A stretch of DNA of 20,436 bases from a virus. Its lineage: Duplodnaviria > Heunggongvirae > Uroviricota > Caudoviricetes. Location of the stretch: the IMG/VR virus record IMGVR_UViG_2690316086_000007, positions 1 to 20,436 of that record; one strand, 5' to 3'. Positions 218-20,181 of the stretch are shown piece after piece. Every line of letters starts with the position of its first letter. The first letter of the stretch is position 1. Position numbers and translations under genes: made by a program. The notes beneath the pieces are model-generated. The model made no database searches. It was not told the DNA's origin and saw only the letters and a program-made list of their open reading frames with translations.

Positions 218-2851
218 GTGGGTAAAAAACTCATGGCATCCCTTGAGGAAGCCGGACAGCGTGAAAAGCTGGCACAAAGCATCATCAGCAAGCGTCAGGC
301 AACAGAACAAGACCCGGTGGCCCGTGCTTTTGCCACACTGAAGGTGCTTCCCGTTTATCTGCGTGAACCTCTGAGCCGCCACCTCTCTTTCCTGCGCAAA
401 AAACAGGAAGCCGATCGCCAGAAAGGCAAAAAGAGCTGGCAGGCTGAACGCTACGCGCGCGGAACCCTGCGCAAAATATTCGAACGTCTGGACCGCACCG
501 ATCACCGCTGGCTGACACCGGGTTATCGCTCCCTTGCCGGACGCGAACGCCTGGACGATTTGCTTTACCTGCCGCAGCTCAACAAACACCAGATACAGAC
601 GCTGGCCACCATGACGGCGGCGATGTTCAGCAGCACCTTCGAAAAACTCTGCGATGGCTTTGGCGCGACTGATGGCGAACTGACCATGGATGTAACGCTG
701 AAGGCGTATCAGATGCTGGCCCGCATGGCGTTACACCTGCACGCCATGCCTCCACATTATGACGCACTGACAACAGACAAAGACCGGAGGAACGAACCGG
801 ACACGGAGCTGCTGCCGGGCGCAATCCTTCGCCTGACCTGTGCGGAATGGTGGAAACGCAAACTGTGGCTGTTACGTTGCGAGTGGAGAGAAGAACAACT
901 CCGCGCCGCCTGTCTGGTTTCCAGAAAAACATCACCCTATCTGAGCCAGGACGCGTTAAGCGAGTTTCGCGCACAGCGCGAGAAAACACGCGATTTCCTG
1001 AAAAGTTTCATGCTGGAAAATGAAGACGGGTTCACGATTGATCTCGAGACAGTGTATTACGCGGGAGTAAGTAACCCGGTTCACCGTAAGGCAGAAATGA
1101 TGGCCACCATGAAGGGGCTGGAACTTCTGGCCGAAGCCCGTGGCGACAGAGCGGTGTTTCTGACTGTCACCTGCCCGTCAAAATACCACGCAACAACGGA
1201 GAACGGTCATCCGAATCCCAAATGGAACGGGGCCACTATGCACGACTCCAGCGATTACCTGGTTAACACGTTTTTTGCGGCGGTCCGCAAAAAACTGAAC
1301 CGCGACGGCCTGCGCTGGTATGGCATCCGCACGGTGGAGCCTCATCATGACGGCACGGTGCACTGGCACATGATGGTTTTTGCTCATCCTGACGAGATTG
1401 TAACCATCGTGTCCCACGTCTGCGATATTGCCATTCAGGAAGACCGCCACGAGCTGGGCAATGACATAACTCCGCGTTTTAAGGCGGAGTACGTCGACGG
1501 CTCAAAAGGCACGCCAACCAGCTACATCGCCACCTACATCGGAAAGAACCTGGACAGCCGCGCCGTGGATGGCATCGACCCGAAAACGGGCAAGCCACGC
1601 GTTGACCACGAAACAGGTAAATCAATGGCCGAGAGCGTGGAGCGCGCCATCGGCTGGGCGCGCCTTCACCGGGTCCGTCAGTTCCAGTTCTTTGGCATCC
1701 CCTCCCGTCAGGTGTGGCGTGAACTGCGCCGCCTTGCCAGCCAGATGGCACGCAATCCGGAAGGCCCGCAACGGCTGAAAGATGATGCAATGGATGCGGT
1801 ACTCGCTGCCGCCGATGCCGGGTGTTTTGCCACCTACATTGAAAAACAGGGTGGCGTGCTTGTTCCACGCAAGGACTACCTGATTCGCACCGCCTACGAC
1901 CTCGCAGATGAGCTGAACGATTACGGCGAACAGAGCGTACAGATTTACGGGATCTGGTCACCACTCATCGGGGAATCCTCCCGTGTGTGCACGCATCCGG
2001 ATAACTGGAAGCTGGTAAGACGTAAACCAGAACCGGAAGACAACGCCCACGAAAATGGTTTTGACCTTCAGGGCGGCCCTGCCGCCCCTTGGACTCGTGG
2101 CAATAACTGTCCCCGTGTACAGGAAACGGACAACAACGGGACAGAACAGCCGGAAGAACGGCCAGCACCGTGGCCGCAGCTTCCTGACGGCGTTGAAGTG
2201 AACGAATGGATGCATTCACTGAAACGGCACGAACGCCGGGCGCTGATGCGTTCGCTTCGTGACAAACAGGCAAAAAACAGCAGCGATGAAATGCAGAACT
2301 GGACACAGAGCCGCAAACAGCCACAGCCTTTGCCTGATAACCACGAGTTACTCGCTAAAGAATGGCGGGAGTCTGCTGAATCTCTCGGCCTGCATATTGG
2401 TGAACAGCAGATGCAGCACCTGTTACGGGGCGGCAGCCTGTACGTTGACGGCAGCATCATTGCACCGCAGGGATTTGAAATTGTACGCAAACCGGATACC
2501 CGCCCGGACAGCCAAATCACGCAGCTCTGGCAGCGCCTGAGCCGTAATCACGGCGTAAGCAGCACGGAGATCCGCCATAACCCGGTCGCCAGCTATCTGG
2601 AACAGCTGGGGGCATCAGACCCCGAAGCCGCCGCACGTCTGGTATCCACACTTCAGCAGGACCAGAACACCATGCCCACCCCCGTTACCGTGCTTTCTGA
2701 CATGCTGCGCGCCATCCGTGACGCAGAGCACGCACAGAGAATCAGTGAAACCACTGAACGCGCCCACCGCAAAGCAGACCTGCTGCGGGGTAGCCTGACC
2801 AGTGGAAACAAAAAAACAGACAGAAACGGGATTCACAAATCCCGTAAATGA
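218..2851 (+). CDS. A: Rolling-circle replication initiation endonuclease, P2 gpA family
   Basis: 877-aa ORF with motifs TVTCPSKYH, VEPHHDGTVHWHMMVF (HUH-type), YIATYIGKNLDS and GWARLHRVRQFQFFGIP, collinear with P2 gpA as recalled. Start is uncertain (GTG 218 or ATG 233), and the frame stays open upstream to the IS junction at 128. Confidence 0.85.
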   Translation: MGKKLMASLEEAGQREKLAQSIISKRQATEQDPVARAFATLKVLPVYLREPLSRHLSFLRKKQEADRQKGKKSWQAERYARGTLRKIFERLDRTDHRWLTPGYRSLAGRERLDDLLYLPQLNKHQIQTLATMTAAMFSSTFEKLCDGFGATDGELTMDVTLKAYQMLARMALHLHAMPPHYDALTTDKDRRNEPDTELLPGAILRLTCAEWWKRKLWLLRCEWREEQLRAACLVSRKTSPYLSQDALSEFRAQREKTRDFLKSFMLENEDGFTIDLETVYYAGVSNPVHRKAEMMATMKGLELLAEARGDRAVFLTVTCPSKYHATTENGHPNPKWNGATMHDSSDYLVNTFFAAVRKKLNRDGLRWYGIRTVEPHHDGTVHWHMMVFAHPDEIVTIVSHVCDIAIQEDRHELGNDITPRFKAEYVDGSKGTPTSYIATYIGKNLDSRAVDGIDPKTGKPRVDHETGKSMAESVERAIGWARLHRVRQFQFFGIPSRQVWRELRRLASQMARNPEGPQRLKDDAMDAVLAAADAGCFATYIEKQGGVLVPRKDYLIRTAYDLADELNDYGEQSVQIYGIWSPLIGESSRVCTHPDNWKLVRRKPEPEDNAHENGFDLQGGPAAPWTRGNNCPRVQETDNNGTEQPEERPAPWPQLPDGVEVNEWMHSLKRHERRALMRSLRDKQAKNSSDEMQNWTQSRKQPQPLPDNHELLAKEWRESAESLGLHIGEQQMQHLLRGGSLYVDGSIIAPQGFEIVRKPDTRPDSQITQLWQRLSRNHGVSSTEIRHNPVASYLEQLGASDPEAAARLVSTLQQDQNTMPTPVTVLSDMLRAIRDAEHAQRISETTERAHRKADLLRGSLTSGNKKTDRNGIHKSRK

Positions 2852-2934
2852 GCAAAAAACGTGCCGCGATATATGAGGCGCGCACAAAACAGGCAAAAGC
2901 GGGATTTAAAAATCCTGTAAACGATTAATTAATC
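2827..2934 (+). promoter_or_regulatory. Palindromic repeat pair plus 12-bp perfect palindrome upstream of parM; candidate operator/centromere-like site
   Basis: CGGGATTcacaAATCCCGtaaa at 2827-2848 (perfect 7-bp arms) and GGGATTTaaaAAATCCtgtaaa at 2901-2921 share a ~21-bp unit 74 bp apart. GATTAATTAATC (2923-2934) is a perfect palindrome just upstream of the parM RBS (AAGGA 2940-2944). Confidence 0.35.
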
Positions 2935-2952
2935 AACATAAGGAAAAGCGAC

Positions 2953-3912
2953 ATGAAAATTTGTATCGACGACGGCTCCACCAACATCAAGCTGGCATGG
3001 GCTGAGAACGGCGAACGCCGCAACGCCATCAGCCCGAACAGCTTCAAGTCGGAATGGTCTGCGCCGTTCGGTGGCACGCAGCCCGCGAACTACATGCTTG
3101 ATGGCGTGCGCTATGGTTTTGATCCGGTCAGCGATCGCTTTGTCCAGACGACCGACACGCAATACCAGTACAGCGATGTGAATGTCATTGCCATTCATCA
3201 CGCACTGGTCAAATCAGGCATCACGCCACAGGAGGTGGATGTGGTTGTCACCCTGCCACTGAGCGAGTATTTCGACACAAACGCACAGCCGGATATGGCC
3301 AACATCAGCCGCAAAAAATCGAACGTTATGCGCCCGGTGGAGTACCAGAACGGCGAAGCATTCACTATCCGTAACGTACGGGTTATGCCTGAATCCATTC
3401 CGGCTGGCTTTAAAGCACTGGCTGACATGAGTCCGTTTGAATCCCTGCTGATTGTGGATTTAGGCGGAACCACACTGGATGTGGCAAAGGTTCAGGGGCA
3501 ACTGGCAGGTATCAGCCAGGTGTTTTGCGATCCACACGTAGGCGTTTCCCTGATGGCCGATGCCGTACTGTCGGTGATGGCCACTAACGGTATGCGTACC
3601 AGTCACCACATCGCCAATACCATTATCGAACATCGCCATGATGAAGCCTGGTTGCGCCAGCACATCCACAATGACGCGCATTACGCCAGCCTGATGGCGG
3701 TTATTCGTGAAAAGGAAGAAACACTGAAACAACGCGTGATCCGCGCGCTGGCGGGCTTTTCGGGTTACGGGCGGGTGATGGTTGTCGGTGGCGGGGCGGA
3801 GATTGTGGCACCCGCTATCCGCGAAGCCTGCGGAGTTAATGCGACTTTCATCGCGGACGGGGTGCCACAGTTTGCTCTGGTTAATGGGCTGTACGCAATG
3901 GACAAGGAGTAA
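2953..3912 (+). CDS. parM: ParM/StbA-family actin-like segregation ATPase
   Basis: 319 aa; collinear similarity to plasmid R1 ParM as recalled (IDDGSTNIKL, ISPNSFK, YSDVNV..HHAL, VMPESIPAG, IDLGGTTLD, FSGY, VGGGAEI, LVNG). RBS AAGGA 8 nt upstream of ATG. Confidence 0.85.
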   Translation: MKICIDDGSTNIKLAWAENGERRNAISPNSFKSEWSAPFGGTQPANYMLDGVRYGFDPVSDRFVQTTDTQYQYSDVNVIAIHHALVKSGITPQEVDVVVTLPLSEYFDTNAQPDMANISRKKSNVMRPVEYQNGEAFTIRNVRVMPESIPAGFKALADMSPFESLLIVDLGGTTLDVAKVQGQLAGISQVFCDPHVGVSLMADAVLSVMATNGMRTSHHIANTIIEHRHDEAWLRQHIHNDAHYASLMAVIREKEETLKQRVIRALAGFSGYGRVMVVGGGAEIVAPAIREACGVNATFIADGVPQFALVNGLYAMDKE

Positions 3913-3916
3913 ACCA

Positions 3917-4228
3917 ATGACGACACCAACCAGACGGATAAGTTTCTATCTGAAGCCCGCCGCCGTCAAGAACGAAGGCGAAGCATGCGCCTGGCTGGAC
4001 AGCCTTACACCAGAAGCCCGCAAAAGTGGTCAACGCGTGGCTTTTCTGGCCGGACTGGCACTTATGAAAATTAATCCGGCAGAGGCTTACCGACTGGCTG
4101 CATGGGCTGACGATGAAGCGTTATCCCTGACACAAACCAGGACAGAACGCCCCGCATCACAGCCAGTATCAACCGCACAGATAACCAGTCAGATGGCCGG
4201 AAATATCCGGGCGTTATTTCCTGAATAA
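3917..4228 (+). CDS. parR: ParR/StbB-like partition adaptor (ribbon-helix-helix type)
   Basis: 103 aa from ATG 3917, 4 nt after the parM stop, with GGAG RBS. Similar to R1 ParR as recalled (ISFYLKP.., AFLAGLAL, C-terminal ..RALFPE). The longer ORF from 3782 overlaps parM and is rejected. Confidence 0.7.
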   Translation: MTTPTRRISFYLKPAAVKNEGEACAWLDSLTPEARKSGQRVAFLAGLALMKINPAEAYRLAAWADDEALSLTQTRTERPASQPVSTAQITSQMAGNIRALFPE

Positions 4229-4236
4229 CACAACAT

Positions 4237-4254
4237 CAGGGCGAGTTCGCCCTG
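4237..4254 (+). terminator. GC-rich hairpin immediately after parR (possible terminator, no U-tract)
   Basis: CAGGGCG-agtt-CGCCCTG, a perfect 7-bp stem 9 nt after the parR stop, followed by CTCTCC rather than a T-run. Confidence 0.3.
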
Positions 4255-4291
4255 CTCTCCACCTCAGAACATAAACAAAGAGAACGACTTA

Positions 4292-4675
4292 ATGAGCGAA
4301 ATCAACTATCAGGCATTACGTGAACGTTATTCACCTGTGCCAGTACCGAAATGCCCTATTTGCGGCGAGGAAATGTCAATTCAGCGAATATCTGGAGCAC
4401 AGGTTGTTTATGCCTGCTCCGGTTATGGTGATGATGGAGATTTCAAAATTGGCCGAACTCTTGCCGACGAACATTATGAAAAATCACGCGTAACAGTGTT
4501 GGATGTCGGGAATCCTGAAGTATTGGCGCTACTTGATTGGCTGGAAACCAAAGACAACCGAATCGCTGAACTGGAAAAAATCGCCACTGACTATGCACTT
4601 AAATTACAGAAAGCACAGGACGCATTAAAGTACGCCGCTTTGCTGCATAGCAGGACAGCGCAGCTACAAGACTAA
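4292..4675 (+). CDS. Hypothetical protein with N-terminal Cys motif (CPICGEE..YACSGYG) and C-terminal predicted coiled coil
   Basis: 127-aa ORF with AAGAGA RBS-like sequence 8-9 nt upstream; lower GC than flanking phage genes. I recognise no homolog. Confidence 0.5.
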   Translation: MSEINYQALRERYSPVPVPKCPICGEEMSIQRISGAQVVYACSGYGDDGDFKIGRTLADEHYEKSRVTVLDVGNPEVLALLDWLETKDNRIAELEKIATDYALKLQKAQDALKYAALLHSRTAQLQD

Positions 4676-4766
4676 CTTAAAGCGGAAGATTAATACATGG
4701 TGAGTCGGGGTAATTTGTTTTTATCCCGACAAATAAACAAAAAAAGTGGACTATCTCTGTAGTATC

Positions 4767-5297
4767 TTATTCAGCATCGTCTCGTGCAGTCTGTGCATAC
4801 GTCACAACAACGCCCAATGCATTAGTTTTCTTTTCAACATAGATAATATTGTCATATTCATAGTTACCATACGGATAGCAAATAAGAATATTTTTATGCA
4901 GATCGGGATCATCAACAAACGCTCCGGAACAGCTTCTTGAACTACCGGATGTATACTCATACGGTGCAACATATGGTGATGTTACTCCTGGTAAAAAATA
5001 AGTCACCATCATAAGAGGGATAATCAGGAATATCCCTGTAAGAATGCAAGAGCCAGCATAAACCTTCAGGTATTCCGACAGTCCTTTCCAGCCACTTTGC
5101 TTCACTACCCCCCTCTTCACCAGAAACAAGGAGAAGAAAAAGGACATACCCATACTACACAAGATGTAATAATTGGATATACGCGAATTAAGATATGTAA
5201 TCCTGTAGATATCTGCCCTCCACCAGTAAAAGAGGAAAATAATCCCTAGCACTGAAACAGTCATGCAAATCAAATAAGGATATGAATCTTTCTTCAT
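4767..5297 (-). CDS. Hypothetical integral membrane protein (3 predicted TM helices plus ~70-aa C-terminal domain), AT-rich cargo gene
   Basis: 176-aa ORF. Hydrophobic segments YLICMTVSVLGIIFLFYWW, YYILCSMGMSFFFSLFLV and SCILTGIFLIIPLMMVTYFL. Markedly AT-rich, with codon usage unlike the surrounding phage genes. Weak RBS. Confidence 0.5.
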   Translation of the reverse strand: MKKDSYPYLICMTVSVLGIIFLFYWWRADIYRITYLNSRISNYYILCSMGMSFFFSLFLVKRGVVKQSGWKGLSEYLKVYAGSCILTGIFLIIPLMMVTYFLPGVTSPYVAPYEYTSGSSRSCSGAFVDDPDLHKNILICYPYGNYEYDNIIYVEKKTNALGVVVTYAQTARDDAE

Positions 5298-5340
5298 GTC
5301 TTGCGCTCATTAAAATTTCCCTGCTACGAACAAATTTACC

Positions 5341-5826
5341 ATCCGTTTTTTGCGCAGAAAACAGCACGATGCACACTGCACGATAGTGCACAAATTTGCA
5401 CAATTTTTTTGAACGACTTTTTACCCTTCCGGCCCGCATGGCGGCTGGATCCGTCAAGGATCCGTGCGTGCACAAAAAAACGCGTTTTTTCTGCGCGCAG
5501 GTGACGGGGGAACAGCCCGCGTTTCAGGGGGTAAATAGCATTCCCTGAACGATGTCGCAGAGATACAACAGAATGGCTGTATTTCTCACGCTGAGCGTGA
5601 AAAAGACGTGAGGGCTTTTGATTTATGGGGTGAAAGGTAAGGCCGTCAAAATCGCACTGAGACGGCGAGAACATGCAGTCAACGCGGTGGGATTGCGTAA
5701 GAGTCTGACTGTCGATGGTGGCGATAAACTGGAAGGCGTCGTGAAATTATCTGACTGATACAGGAGCTGGAGAGTCGGGGCATAAATTTTTTATGCCCCG
5801 GCGAAGCAGCAGACAAGCGAAGCGCG
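5341..5826. other. Non-coding region between cargo slot and portal gene; expected location of the cos site and packaging signals by P2 synteny (exact cos not identified)
   Basis: No convincing ORF. Dense in direct and inverted repeats (TGCACA array 5364-5403; GGATCCGT x2 at 5447-5465; AAAAAACGCGTTTTTT palindrome 5474-5490; 11-bp-stem hairpin 5776-5800). In P2 the cos lies between old and Q. Confidence 0.4.
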
Positions 5827-6873
5827 TCAGGATGTGGGCTGGGTGTCTAACAGTGCGTAAGGGTTAAAGCGGATCACCTCTTCGCCAAGCCAGTCATTGA
5901 TGTGCTTCATGGCCTCCATGACGGGCATCAGCTCGTTAATTGCGTAAACCCGCGCGGCCTTCTCCACATCACCAAACGCACTTTTTTCGCCCGGCATCGC
6001 CCCCATCAGTTGCGGCGGAACGCGGTGCGCAGCCAGCACATCATCACGGGATGCCGCCTTAACATTCATGAACTCATCCTTTGCGGTGATCTGCTGGAAC
6101 GGCAAAATTTGCACCCCCTCTTTGCCCCCGTTGGGAGCATGGATGAGCACGTTTTTAAACGCACCACCACCACGCGCACCCTGTAACGTTTCTTTCAGGG
6201 AGTCCATGCTTTCGCGGTTTACCTGCGCTGCACCGATGTAGATGATGCACCCGGCGTGGGATCCATTGTCGTAATACAGTTTTCTGAACATGTCCGCCGA
6301 ATGAGACAGGCTGGCCGAGAGTAATGCGCCAAGATATTCCGGCATGCCGTAAATTTCCTGGTTAATGTCCGGATTCATCAGGTGGCACACTTTGCCAGGG
6401 CGAAACTGAAACGCGTCCTTGCCATCCTGCACATACCACCATGATTCAAGATCGCTTCCGCGTCGCATGTATTTCGCCAGTGCGTGCCGTAATTTAAGCG
6501 GTTCGCCGAGCATATTGCTTCGAAGCTCAAGGAATGCGTTACCGAACACAAACCAGTCCAGCGCCAGCGCCGAGAAATCCTGCCGGGAAAGCAGCGGGTG
6601 CGGGATGTAGCAACCGAGTAATACATTGCGCTTAAAGTAAAGCGCAGACTGATGCCAGGACGTTTGCCGGGCAGCTCTTGCCAGACCGTACCAGTCCACC
6701 GGGGTTTCATACCACCGCCCGTTATCAGCACAGTACATATTGTCCAGCAGGTCATGCCCGGTCAGGCGATAAGGACCATCAAATGTGAATGCACTGAGCG
6801 ATGATTCTTTCCTGAGCGCATCAGCGAGATCAATGCGTGAACTCATGCGCACTTTTTTATTTTTTCTGCTCAT
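5827..6873 (-). CDS. Q: Portal protein, P2 gpQ-like
   Basis: 348-aa ORF immediately downstream of and translationally coupled to the terminase gene (minus-strand TGATG overlap at 6871-6875); position and size match P2 Q. Confidence 0.8.
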   Translation of the reverse strand: MSRKNKKVRMSSRIDLADALRKESSLSAFTFDGPYRLTGHDLLDNMYCADNGRWYETPVDWYGLARAARQTSWHQSALYFKRNVLLGCYIPHPLLSRQDFSALALDWFVFGNAFLELRSNMLGEPLKLRHALAKYMRRGSDLESWWYVQDGKDAFQFRPGKVCHLMNPDINQEIYGMPEYLGALLSASLSHSADMFRKLYYDNGSHAGCIIYIGAAQVNRESMDSLKETLQGARGGGAFKNVLIHAPNGGKEGVQILPFQQITAKDEFMNVKAASRDDVLAAHRVPPQLMGAMPGEKSAFGDVEKAARVYAINELMPVMEAMKHINDWLGEEVIRFNPYALLDTQPTS

Positions 6874-8624
6874 CAGAACTCCATAACCGTGAAACGCTCG
6901 TTTTCTCCTTCGCCGCCAATCGGTTCGTTAATGACAGCAAGCATGGTTGCCCACGCAAGGTCGCCGTGGCTGATCCCCCTCGCGCGATCCGTTTCGTAAG
7001 TGATAAAGCCGCCCGGTGTTTTCACCTTACGCACGGCGTTAAAGGCCGCGACCAGCTCGCGTTCGGCGCGATCGTATTCCCACCGCCCGGCACGCATTAT
7101 TTGCAGCATTTTCAGTACCAGCGACCGTTTTGATGACAGCGTGAAGGTGTACGGAATAGCAGCAGGGAAAAACCGTTTCACTATCTGATAAACAGCCTCC
7201 CCGTTCCCGCCCGTCACATCAATGCCGATGTGTTCCACGTTGTAGCGATACGTGAACTCTTCAATGACTCTGGCCTGTTCTTCAAACTCCAGCCCCTGAA
7301 CGCGTCGCGTCTCCACCGTTCGAAAACGGCCACCAGGAACAGCCGGAGGAACCACCACGGACACAGCGCCGCTGTCGCCGTTGCCACTGCTGCCGTTTGC
7401 GTCATACCCAATCCATACCGGACGATTCCCCATCGGTCGGGGAGCAAAAGGTTTCCAGTCTTTCCAGTCGTCGTATCCGTCAACACCGCAGCCAATCAGG
7501 ATATTCAGGTTAAATGCCGATTCCCCTTCGCGAACAAACTCACACATATAGAGATTGAGGAACTCGTCTTCGGTGTTTTCATCACGGATTTCGTCAATAT
7601 CGGTGTGTTTCCAGCCGTGATTAACCACATCTTCCAGCGTGACAATTTGTCGCCACGTCCGGTCAGGGCAGATAAGCCCGTTATGCAGCGTTTTCCAGTC
7701 CACAGAAAAACGCTGGCGTTTATGCGAGGCCTTTTTCTCGTTCCAGCGGTCGCCGTTCCAGTAGGCGTATGCCTCGTGCGTTTCGGTGGATGGCGTGGAG
7801 AAGTAGGTGCGCCGCAGTCCGCTGAGGGTTGCCATAGCGCCAGCTACCTTGCGCAGTTCAGCAAAGCGACTGACCCAGAAAAATTCATCAAAATAAAAAT
7901 TGCCCGTATAGGACTGTGCCGACGCAGCAGAAGTGCCGAGAAAATGCAGCTCTGCGCCGTTGGAGAGGATGATTTTATCGCCCCCTTTCAGCTCCACATC
8001 AACTTCAGCCGCGGCCTTCTGAATAATGCTTTTAAACTGGAACGCCTGACGACGCGACGCAGACAAAAAAATCTGGTTACGCTGGTAAGGTTGCGCCACA
8101 TCGTCACGCAGCGCCATCAGCAGAGCTTCCTGTGCAAAATACCAGGTCGCCCCAATCTGTCGGGATTTCAGGATCATCCTGTTACGTATCCCGGCTTCCC
8201 TGCAAAGGGTCAGGGAATCAAACCAGCCCCGCTGATGCCACTCCAGCCTGCTGATGATTTTTTCCCGCAGTGCGGCAATCTGTTCCGGCGTGAAATGATT
8301 TTTGAGTTTTTTCGCCCGGCCTTTCTTTCCTGTGACCGTCGCATCCGGCTGGCCATCATGCAGTTTTTTAAGCTGCCGGGTCAGCAGGTCTATTTCCTTA
8401 AAGTCACCGCCTGTTTTATTCTGTTTTTCAGTAAGCTGGATGAGGCGCGCATCGATGGACTGCGTGACACGCTGCACGGGTGGCGTTTCATCCCACTGGT
8501 CGCGTTTTTTCCACGCATAAATCGTGTTCGGGTTTATTCCCATCAGACGTGATATTTCTGCGGGCGGATAACCCTGCCAGTAAAGTTGCCGCGCACGCTG
8601 GCGCACAAAAGCGTCCTGAATCAT
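6873..8624 (-). CDS. P: Terminase large (ATPase) subunit, P2 gpP-like
   Basis: 583 aa; N-terminal HTH-like segment (PPAEISRLMGINPNTIYAWKK), Walker-A-like ILKSRQIGAT, size and position as in P2 P. Confidence 0.88.
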   Translation of the reverse strand: MIQDAFVRQRARQLYWQGYPPAEISRLMGINPNTIYAWKKRDQWDETPPVQRVTQSIDARLIQLTEKQNKTGGDFKEIDLLTRQLKKLHDGQPDATVTGKKGRAKKLKNHFTPEQIAALREKIISRLEWHQRGWFDSLTLCREAGIRNRMILKSRQIGATWYFAQEALLMALRDDVAQPYQRNQIFLSASRRQAFQFKSIIQKAAAEVDVELKGGDKIILSNGAELHFLGTSAASAQSYTGNFYFDEFFWVSRFAELRKVAGAMATLSGLRRTYFSTPSTETHEAYAYWNGDRWNEKKASHKRQRFSVDWKTLHNGLICPDRTWRQIVTLEDVVNHGWKHTDIDEIRDENTEDEFLNLYMCEFVREGESAFNLNILIGCGVDGYDDWKDWKPFAPRPMGNRPVWIGYDANGSSGNGDSGAVSVVVPPAVPGGRFRTVETRRVQGLEFEEQARVIEEFTYRYNVEHIGIDVTGGNGEAVYQIVKRFFPAAIPYTFTLSSKRSLVLKMLQIMRAGRWEYDRAERELVAAFNAVRKVKTPGGFITYETDRARGISHGDLAWATMLAVINEPIGGEGENERFTVMEF

Positions 8625-19037: not shown

Positions 19038-19654
19038 TGGCATTCAGAATGAGTGAACAATCACGTACTGTAAAAATTTATAACCTGCTGGCCGGAACTA
19101 ATGAGTTTATTGGTGAAGGTGACGCATATATTCCACCTCATACAGGGCTGCCAGCTAATTCTACAGATATCGCCCCACCGGAAATTCCTGCTGGCTTTGT
19201 GGCAGTTTTTAACAGTGAAAATGAATCGTGGAATATTGTTGAAGACCATCGTGGTAAAACGGTCTATGACGTGGCCTCGGGGGACGCGTTGTTTATTTCT
19301 GAACCCGGACCGCTACCAGAGAATGTCACCTGGTTGTCGCCAGCAGGGGAGTATCAGAAGTGGGACGGCGTATCCTGGGTGAAGGATGAGGAAGCAGAAA
19401 AACTGTTTCGGATACGGGAAGCGGAAGAGAAAAAGGCAAGGTTGATCCAGGAGGCAACAGATAACATCGCAATTCTGCAGGATGCAGTTAATCTTGAAAT
19501 AGCAACAAACGAGGAAAATTCACAACTGGATTCCTGGAGAAAATACAGAGTATTAGTGAGTCGAATTGACACCAGTACAGCTCCGGATATCGTATGGCCA
19601 GAGCTGATGAATCAGGGTTATGTGCGGGAGGACGAGCAGATAACTTCAGACTGA
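19037..19654 (+). CDS. G: Tail fibre assembly chaperone, P2 gpG/Tfa-like
   Basis: ATG overlaps the H stop (TAATG); 205 aa; positional and compositional match to Tfa-family chaperones that follow tail-fibre genes. Confidence 0.75.
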
Positions 19655-20181
19655 AATTTAGTGATGAATGTTGAATCATCAGGAATATCATGCAATACCA
19701 ATGCATGAGCACCTATTGTGACATTGTTTCCTATACGCACTTTGCCACCAAGAATGGTGGCATTACAACCAATGGTCACATTATGTCCTATAACAATATC
19801 CATATCATTAAAATCACCACGTAGCCCAATAGTTACCCCTGGTTTTATTGAACAATTTTCACCGATGGTTACTTTGTGACCGATAACAACACTATTGAGA
19901 TAAGAAATATCAAAGCCTTTCCCTATATTTACAGTTAAAGGGACTGTTACATTATATTTATCAAGAATGAAACGTTCTATTTTCCCCGCAATCTTCCGAC
20001 AGTATCCGCCTTTATCAAAAAGGTATTTGGCTATGCGCCACCAAAATAAATAACGAACTCTTCTATGTTTTATTGCGCGAACAATTGCCTTTCGCCAGGA
20101 GAAAGGACGCTCGCTACCGATTACTTCATAGTGAATACAGTCTTTAAGTTCATTAATATTCATATCTCTATTATTTAGCAT
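19618..20181 (-). CDS. Hexapeptide-repeat (left-handed beta-helix) acetyltransferase, WcaF/WbbJ/CysE-like; AT-rich moron
   Basis: 187 aa; repeated [LIV]G..X hexads ([56 protein letters not shown]) and N-terminal FWWR segment as in small sugar O-acetyltransferases. About 35% GC against ~55% for the phage genes. 3' end overlaps G convergently by 37 bp. Confidence 0.75.

Follow-up and report, generated by a model that had tools for sequence, protein, structure and literature searches.

The prophage DNA analysed here (20,436 nucleotides (nt), positions 1–20,436 of IMG/VR record IMGVR_UViG_2690316086_000007, hereafter the window) carries between its replication gene A and its portal gene Q what is, as judged by the similarity and integrity of its two genes, a genuine and intact type II (ParM–ParR) partition module, and the membership of both proteins in their families is essentially certain. 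The presence of this cassette is already known: it is common, catalogues already list it for a named genus of phages (Xuanwuvirus), and the leading hypothesis for its function is in print. New here are its linkage to gene A, the selection acting on it, its spread among lineages, and a two-box candidate centromere upstream of parM. On balance, we consider it probable that the module partitions or positions the transient circle of an excised or infecting phage genome and does not serve a stable plasmid lifestyle.

Identity of the two proteins

The first gene of the module, parM (2953–3912, plus strand; RefSeq WP_000686474.1, 'plasmid segregation protein ParM'), is intact and encodes an actin-like segregation ATPase of 319 amino acids. 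It stands directly before parR (3917–4228, plus strand), which encodes a predicted centromere-binding adaptor of 103 amino acids, and the intergenic gap is 4 nt. Both follow gene A (218–2851, plus strand), the rolling-circle replication endonuclease gene (Pfam Phage_GPA, E = 2.5e-128), in the gene A–cos–Q interval of a P2-like prophage, the slot in which P2 carries tin and old. A preliminary description of this DNA had delimited a cassette of 1428 bp (2827–4254), starting at the first of two palindromic boxes and ending with a hairpin, and had named the two open reading frames (ORFs) as homologues of the ParM and ParR of plasmid R1, in canonical order, downstream of a repeat region and between gene A and cos/Q. 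Each of these statements holds: the ORFs lie in the order parM–parR, the gene order of the window bears out the slot, a direct repeat is present upstream, and the profile search that was proposed at that time returns both families, with ParM also matching R1 structures.

ParM matches the Pfam profiles StbA_N (E = 1.6e-81) and ParM C-terminal domain (E = 1.3e-68) and aligns end to end (residues 2–316) with the R1 ParM structure 1mwk at ∼50 per cent identity (E = 2.5e-92). The segments DDGSTNIK, PESIPAG, DLGGTTLD, and GGGAE are identical or nearly so to their counterparts in that alignment, and we take them to be the nucleotide-binding and hydrolysis motifs, with the catalytic residues of R1 ParM. 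A search of NCBIfam gave only sub-threshold matches for ParM, and PHROGs files ParM and ParR alike under 'partition protein'. Selection on the gene is marked: the ratio of nonsynonymous to synonymous divergence (dN/dS) for parM is 0.05–0.08 in comparisons of the window with phage P88, the P88-like genome pZ1323PEC0009-2 (pZ1323), an Escherichia albertii prophage, and a Hafnia prophage, and gene A gives higher values of 0.11–0.29. By this measure ParM is under very strong purifying selection. The Hafnia prophage has a ParM that is 93.7 per cent identical to that of the window and a gene A that is only 62.8 per cent identical, and because dS for parM in this pair is about half that of gene A, the module may have been exchanged between phages.

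ParR matches PF10784 (Plasmid_stab_B, E = 1.9e-25), as does the R1-type ParR of an IncFII plasmid (E = 2.8e-30); it has no match in NCBIfam and none among PDB sequences at E ≤ 1. When 19 relatives from the protein database are aligned, the N-terminal strand RRISFYLKP (within M..RRISFYLKP..V) is invariant, the helices that follow are conserved to about residue 63, a hypervariable linker occupies residues ∼65–93, and a tail of the form NI(R/Q)ALFPE is kept. This tail aligns with KKNAMKLIN at the C-terminus of R1 ParR and with NIKNLFPDDE of the IncI-gamma/K ParR. In R1 it is the C-terminal tail of ParR that binds ParM. As far as the alignment reveals it, the layout is the known three-part architecture of ParR proteins, and it would suit a ribbon-helix-helix fold that binds DNA, joined to a ParM-binding helix at the C-terminus. 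The DNA-binding domain is only 26–28 per cent identical to those of plasmid ParRs. Within the phage group, ParR 'types' (50–95 per cent identity) differ chiefly in the linker and at scattered positions of the helical part, and the invariant N-terminal strand suggests that all read the same DNA. Up to three copies of the cassette reside in one E. coli genome, and since the strand is invariant, ParR specificity appears not to have diversified despite this co-residence.

A candidate cis site upstream of parM

Upstream of parM lies a 39-nt direct repeat (family D1) whose two copies (2813–2851 and 2886–2924) are 82 per cent identical and 73 bp apart from start to start. Each copy holds a palindromic box, CGGGATTCACAAATCCCG at 2827–2844 and CGGGATTTAAAAATCCTG at 2900–2917, within which the 16-bp boxes themselves, 73 bp apart, are GGGATTCACAAATCCC (box 1, 2828–2843) and GGGATTTAAAAATCCT (box 2, 2901–2916). 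The 34-bp core between the copies (2852–2885), with an A/T-rich GATATAT inside it, is poorly conserved, and repeat copy 2 is followed by a conserved leader, TTAATTAATCAACATAAGGAAAAG (2925–2952, plus strand), that includes the ribosome-binding site of parM. Between E. coli and Hafnia, identity is 78 per cent in repeat 1 and 85 per cent in repeat 2, falling to 50 per cent in the core and 46 per cent in the flanking part of gene A.

The same arrangement recurs in the four lineages of clade A, the phage-linked ParM clade to which the window belongs (see below). In each, the 200 nt that precede parM contain exactly two GGG-N10-CC boxes, centred near −125 and −52 relative to its start and 72–73 bp apart; when the sequences were shuffled, such a pair arose by chance in at most 1 of 10,000 trials (1e-4) per locus. 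The inner bases of the boxes vary by lineage (GGGATTCACAAATCCC, GGGATTGAGGAAACCC, GGGACAACAAAAACCC), and in the Plesiomonas locus and one of the two Hafnia loci (L013) the outer GGG/CCC triplets and the 72–73-bp spacing are kept while the inner arms are non-complementary. What persists is thus confined to the outer triplets and to a distance of about seven turns of the helix, and recognition by a protein on one face of the helix fits these data better than an RNA stem or terminator. A looser pattern, CGGG-N10-CC, is not enriched across the window (16 occurrences against 13 expected), so the signal lies in conserved position and spacing rather than in counts. The leader motif ATTAATCAA(A/C)...AAGG is common to the E. 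coli, Plesiomonas, and Hafnia L013 loci, and the other Hafnia locus (L006) has ATTAATAAAGCAACATAAGG. No GGG-N10-CC boxes occur in the upstream regions of clade B, R1, or IncI; in clade B that region holds inverted arms of 14–20 nt around a 26–28-bp core. On the strength of their position and spacing, the boxes are a candidate ParR site, serving as centromere, operator, or both.

Three further observations concern this region and its motif. Inside gene A, at 1062–1078, a box-like element with a perfect outer palindrome, CGGGAGTAAGTAACCCG, has a GGG/CCC spacer of 9 rather than 10 nt and may be due to chance. In Hafnia L013 an ORF of 167 amino acids (5453–5956) is located between gene A and parM, and both GGG-N10-CCC boxes lie in or at its 3' end. 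A methyltransferase-like ORF and an ORF of 71 amino acids stand between the same two genes in Enterobacter L015 (4914–5848).

The end of gene A and expression of the module

The last ∼45 nt of gene A overlap repeat copy 1. The gene A frame is open from the start of the window, the RefSeq model begins at about position 35, and tblastn finds the gene intact over 128–2833. Near its end, a run of adenines (2808–2819) has seven residues in the window and the E. albertii prophage and six in P88 and pZ1323, and this difference in length shifts the reading frame of the final 15–21 codons: the former two stop at 2851 ('GIHKSRK') and the latter two stop 25 nt further on, at the equivalent of 2876 ('QKTRSDI'), which places the gene A stop of P88-type genomes inside the core between the repeats. 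The 'frameshifted' label given to gene A of the window by the Prokaryotic Genome Annotation Pipeline (PGAP) reflects this polymorphism of the tail only. Because the DNA of repeat 1 is conserved while the protein frame overlapping it changes, the constraint on this repeat acts on DNA and not on protein.

A scan of 2600–5900 for the sigma-70 consensus found no promoter, and the interval between gene A and parM contains no plus-strand terminator; terminator-like matches at the boxes are on the minus strand only. Inspection by eye found no −10/−35 pair in the core that is conserved across lineages, and ATTAATCAA does not fit the −10 consensus. With neither a plus-strand terminator nor a sigma-70 match, and with the P88 gene A stop falling inside the element, the simplest reading is that a single transcript covers gene A, parM, and parR, and we infer that the two par genes belong to the early operon. 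Just beyond the right end of the conserved cassette is a G+C-rich hairpin, CAGGGCGAGTTCGCCCTG (4237–4254), which is likewise terminator-like on the minus strand only.

Linkage to gene A

The preliminary description placed the module in a 'cargo slot'. The location between gene A and Q stands, as set out above, but the status of cargo does not, given that parMR is tied to gene A and that its position is kept in distant P2-like lineages. The 3' half of the P88-type gene A is found in 1355 genomes (at least 80 per cent coverage) and parMR in 1278, and the two occur almost always together. Variable cargo is swapped across close relatives, and parMR is not. Most matches to other phages end at window positions 4223–4254, six of them at the parR stop (4228–4231), and three end earlier, at 3971; the genes beyond parR differ among the window, P88, and pZ1323PEC0009-2. 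Since similarity ends near the parR stop and later genes differ, the variable hotspot proper starts after parR. On the evidence of this linkage, parMR behaves as part of the replication block of its lineage, made up of P88-like phages and related prophages of Enterobacterales and Plesiomonas; it is tied to the P88-type gene A and is not swappable cargo.

Beyond parR, the cargo of the window has decayed while parM and parR are intact. It comprises an Ead/Ea22-like gene annotated as truncated (4292–4675), a frameshifted hypothetical gene (∼4767–5342, minus strand; PHROG 1416), and an ORF without a family match (5336–5674, minus strand). PADLOC models (E ≤ 0.01) matched none of ParM, ParR, and these three downstream ORFs. 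In relatives, the place after parR is taken by a HicAB toxin–antitoxin pair (Serratia L014, 7450–8084), a KAP nucleoside triphosphatase (Enterobacter L015, 7411–8757), or a helix-turn-helix gene with a Peptidase_M78 gene (E. coli L007, 1114–2833), and this variety is consistent with a hotspot that starts downstream of parR.

Lineages and relatives

The order gene A, parM, parR, portal is kept in all six phage-side lineages examined (E. coli, two of Hafnia, Plesiomonas, Serratia, and Enterobacter). The nearest ParMs outside the P88 group, those of Plesiomonas, the second Hafnia lineage, Serratia, and Enterobacter, are 54–63 per cent identical to that of the window, and the four loci in this range that were looked up are all placed in the gene A–portal interval of a P2-like prophage. 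At 49–53 per cent identity the context changes: three homologues stand among Rep3, ParA/ParB, or Tra genes of plasmids or conjugative elements. Plasmid ParMs in PLSDB reach at most 52 per cent identity, save for six phage-bearing records at 95 per cent or more, and a clear gap in identity separates plasmid ParMs from the phage clade. A tblastn search of the 72,556 PLSDB plasmids with ParR (E ≤ 1e-5) gave no match beyond the seven records that carry the cassette DNA.

In a distance tree, two phage-linked clades are fully supported, one (clade A) of E. coli, Hafnia, and Plesiomonas and the other (clade B) of Serratia and Enterobacter; the latter is weakly sister to the ParM of IncI-gamma/K plasmids. 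From these two clades, the association of ParM with P2-like phages is old and may have arisen twice. The breadth of this distribution was taken from protein searches and look-ups of context, as an exact-peptide-word scan of species-representative genomes was too strict for the purpose, returning three loci only, one of them in a probably contaminated Collinsella metagenome-assembled genome. This last locus is a ParM of 98 per cent identity on a 3.7-kb contig (JAIJJM010000298.1) of 'Collinsella sp.', almost certainly contamination from an E. coli prophage.

Prevalence and earlier descriptions

The preliminary description knew of no type II partition system on record for P2-like phages, a premise that proved wrong because RefSeq and two published surveys already report the module. 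RefSeq annotates ParM in phage P88 (NC_026014), and over 1300 E. coli chromosomes bear this annotation too. StbA and Plasmid_stab_B are present in about a quarter of P2-like phages, and supplementary tables list 'StbA + Plasmid_stab_B' arrangements (Rousset 2022, PMC9122126). P88 was scored for 'plasmid-like replication genes' and flagged as a possible phage-plasmid for its partition genes, though integrated (Pfeifer 2021, PMC7969092), and both studies had already offered the idea of plasmid maintenance. The cis site, selection, and wider phylogenetic spread are not analysed in either.

Nor is the insert rare. The 1428-bp span matches fourteen phage records at 94–98 per cent DNA identity, among them P88, Xuanwuvirus P884B11, PhiR44_2, Citrobacter phage Shae_phiSM, and 520873, several of which are annotated with 'plasmid segregation protein ParM'; the window does not differ materially from these P88-like phages (Xuanwuvirus) and is another copy of the same cassette. 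At 90 per cent identity or more, the cassette is present in 1307 of 5426 complete E. coli genomes (24 per cent), so that a survey for the same insert finds it common and annotated rather than novel. Carriers include O121, O157:H7, ST131, and UTI89-type strains, and the window is 100 per cent identical to prophages of O121 and O103 Shiga toxin-producing E. coli. The complete E. coli genomes hold 1455 such places, 1453 chromosomal and two on plasmids. In PLSDB, the cassette DNA including the boxes occurs in 7 of 72,556 plasmids, and in six of these the adjacent gene A accompanies it; the other is a Shigella boydii record of 26.8 kb that has part of the cassette only. Five of the seven matches are in far larger records (228 kb–1.4 Mb), which could be plasmids with a prophage inserted in them or chromosomes filed as plasmids.

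One of the plasmid records is a complete P88-like phage from E. coli of a cat, deposited as the non-mobilizable 'plasmid' pZ1323PEC0009-2 (NZ_CP148288.1, 34,461 bp, circular). A region 99.9 per cent identical to its int–C–cox segment is chromosomal in strain Z1323HEC0067, and the assembly of strain Z1323PEC0009 itself is absent among the top matches listed for the E. coli collection.

Proposed partition of a transient circle

Two experimentally studied systems provide the closest precedents for a partition module on an integrated element. SrpMRC of the SXT/R391 elements is expressed only upon activation of its element, and its substrate is a transient circle, which is replicated in a rolling-circle-type manner by the relaxase TraI from oriT; the centromere of SrpMRC, which precedes the ATPase gene, consists of four repeats, direct and inverted (Carraro et al. 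2015, PMC4489591). Like the module of the window, it is type II-like, has few upstream repeats, and is found on a normally integrated element. It differs in that SrpM and SrpR are distant from R1 ParM and ParR, SrpR lacking a recognisable ParR domain, whereas the proteins of the window are close members of those families, and in that SXT/R391 elements are conjugative whereas the element here is a phage. The role of SrpMRC has been shown experimentally, and that of the phage module is putative. AlpAC of the Corynebacterium glutamicum prophage CGP3 is induced early after excision and is needed for efficient replication of circular CGP3 DNA (Donovan et al. 2015, PMC4446434). It too combines, on an integrated prophage, an actin-like ATPase with an adaptor, which in AlpAC binds repeats in its own upstream region (alpS); but its host is Gram-positive, its ATPase belongs to another actin-like family, its adaptor is unrelated and encoded first, and there is no sequence relationship to the proteins of the window beyond the actin fold. 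The prophage of the window is an element of this kind: integrated, with an integrase, and equipped with an actin-like ATPase as well as an adaptor and repeats that precede them.

A comparable mechanism can be proposed for the phage module. After infection or excision the phage genome becomes a free circle, and parM and parR would then be transcribed with gene A in the early operon. ParR dimers would bind the two GGG-N10-CC(C) boxes, which are spaced by 72–73 bp where gene A ends, and, by homology with R1, the C-terminal helix of ParR would capture the ends of ParM filaments. ATP-driven polymerisation of ParM would then separate or position sister phage circles, with the outcome that the episome is kept through division until it integrates or that replication in the lytic cycle is efficient. 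That the module works on a free circle is suggested by several points taken together: parMR would be co-transcribed with gene A, the copies are almost all integrated, an integrase is present, and P88 is an inducible, plaque-forming phage (PMC5285337). Both a tyrosine integrase and gene A are annotated in the P88 and O121 prophages, and no plasmid Rep is annotated in either.

Several points weigh against this proposal. P2-type lytic replication is fast and reaches high copy, and the need for active partition is therefore less obvious. The cis site consists of only two palindromic boxes, unlike the parC sites of R1 and IncI, each with two blocks of 10–11-bp direct iterons, and it may be an operator only or a site for another protein. 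The timing of expression is read from the lack of consensus signals in a simple scan, and there may be a weak promoter under ParR control, located between the boxes or beyond them, which would give expression in the lysogen. An AlphaFold model of the ParR monomer, built from the 19-sequence alignment, is poor (mean predicted local distance difference test score (pLDDT) of 56, N-terminal strand not modelled), and a search of the accessible literature found no experiment on the cassette.

Alternative explanations

The presence of a complete ParMR module with a candidate cis site speaks for a phage that lives as a long-term, low-copy plasmid, instead of or in alternation with integration, and this phage-plasmid idea, raised in the preliminary description, is also the one in print (Rousset 2022, PMC9122126; Pfeifer 2021, PMC7969092). 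A whole P88-like genome, pZ1323PEC0009-2, is deposited as a circular 'plasmid', and the P2-like Burkholderia phage KS14 is a proven plasmid (PMC3091744). However, complete E. coli genomes place the cassette on the chromosome in all but two of the 1455 instances, most plasmid-database matches are in records too large to be the phage itself, an integrase is present, and replication depends on gene A, a rolling-circle gene of the lytic cycle, whereas KS14 has RepB and ParA and is without gene A in a comparison with P2 proteins (PMC3091744). The DNA-reading strand of ParR is, moreover, invariant within the E. coli clade despite as many as three co-resident copies, which would be unexpected of plasmids that reside together for long. 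With a near-identical phage integrated elsewhere, the pZ1323PEC0009-2 record may stem from the assembly of phage DNA that had excised and was replicating as a circle. A plasmid lifestyle is thus unlikely, if the least unlikely of the alternatives. Next to it, and slightly less probable, is the view that the boxes are not a centromere at all but RNA hairpins, terminators, or sites of another phage protein, with ParR binding elsewhere or no functional cis site present. Both E. coli boxes are hairpin-like on the minus strand, where T-rich runs follow them, and a layout of two palindromes is unlike any characterised parC; against this, Plesiomonas and Hafnia L013 keep the outer triplets and spacing in a manner that fits one-face recognition by a protein, there is no minus-strand gene at this place to terminate, and a site upstream of parM mirrors parC, srpC, and alpS.

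The preliminary description also considered that an actin-like module might have been repurposed for another function such as defence. In the lysogen, such a role could be anti-phage or anti-plasmid defence, superinfection exclusion by centromere capture, or an effect on the host chromosome. The gene A–Q hotspot does hold many defence systems (PMC9122126), and the cassette is both frequent among E. coli genomes and intact beside decayed cargo. It is nonetheless linked to a gene A lineage, keeps canonical partition features, and lacks the variability of defence cargo; the genes in the slot have no PADLOC match, and the sigma-70 scan detected no promoter of its own. The available text and supplements of Rousset 2022 give no sign that the cassette was tested, and the authors favour another function for it (PMC9122126). 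We regard such a role as improbable. Less credible still is a third suggestion of the preliminary description, that the prophage module is a weapon of incompatibility that destabilises co-resident ParMR plasmids (R1/IncFII, IncI). ParM is 46–52 per cent identical to plasmid ParMs and the ParR tail resembles that of IncI-gamma/K ParR, which makes cross-talk between ParR and ParM conceivable, but plasmid ParMs all lie at or below 52 per cent, across a gap from the phage clade, and the DNA-binding domain of ParR has diverged from plasmid ParRs to the extent described above. ParR and the cassette DNA with its boxes match only the seven PLSDB records, and the upstream regions of R1 and IncI have unrelated iterons in place of GGG-N10-CC boxes. 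Partition or positioning of a transient circle therefore remains the reading that we prefer.

Comparison with plasmid partition systems

Set beside ParMRC (stb) of R1/NR1, the module of the window has much in common: a ParM of ∼50 per cent identity over its full length, a ParR in PF10784 with the same three-part layout, the order parM–parR, and repeats flanking a core upstream of parM. The differences lie in the carrier, a low-copy plasmid in one case and an integrating P2-like prophage in the other; in the cis site, with two blocks of five 11-bp direct iterons in R1 parC and two 16-bp boxes in the window; in the core, which in the window is without a clear promoter; and in ParR, which has 103 amino acids against 116–117 in the R1 type at 26 per cent identity. 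Other temperate tailed phages also carry a plasmid partition module, namely P1 (ParAB), D6 (StbA-type, with a ParM homologue 47.5 per cent identical to that of the window), and KS14 (RepB and ParA). These replicate from initiators of plasmid type and occur as plasmids, unlike the type represented by the window, which has gene A and an integrase and is chromosomal.

Neighbouring genes

To the right of the hotspot lie the portal gene Q (5827–6873, minus strand) and the terminase gene P (6873–8624, minus strand). At the other end of the window, just past the tail-fibre and tail-fibre-assembly genes and on the opposite strand to them, is a gene for a hexapeptide-repeat acyl- or acetyltransferase (19,618–20,181, minus strand). 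It sits at the second cargo position of P2-like phages, and its product may modify a polysaccharide of the cell surface; in pZ1323PEC0009-2 the counterpart of this gene bears the annotation 'transferase'.

Significance

About a quarter of complete E. coli genomes hold an intact, strongly conserved partition module within an integrated prophage. Were the module indeed to partition the phage circle, plasmid-like maintenance of elements regarded as 'integrative' would extend beyond SXT/R391 and one Corynebacterium prophage. A bolder proposal, which we offer tentatively and consider possible rather than probable, is that a large branch of P2-like phages relies in its life cycle on ParMR and a minimal centromere of two boxes as a conserved working component rather than an accessory, which would segregate or position the products of gene A rolling-circle replication. 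If so, the ParM filament would raise lysogenisation, prevent curing after abortive excision, or organise lytic replication, and the two boxes would constitute a new and much simpler type of ParR centromere, offering a handle on the coupling of ParR to ParM. An actin-type cytoskeleton would then be routine in a phage group that roughly one E. coli genome in four harbours.

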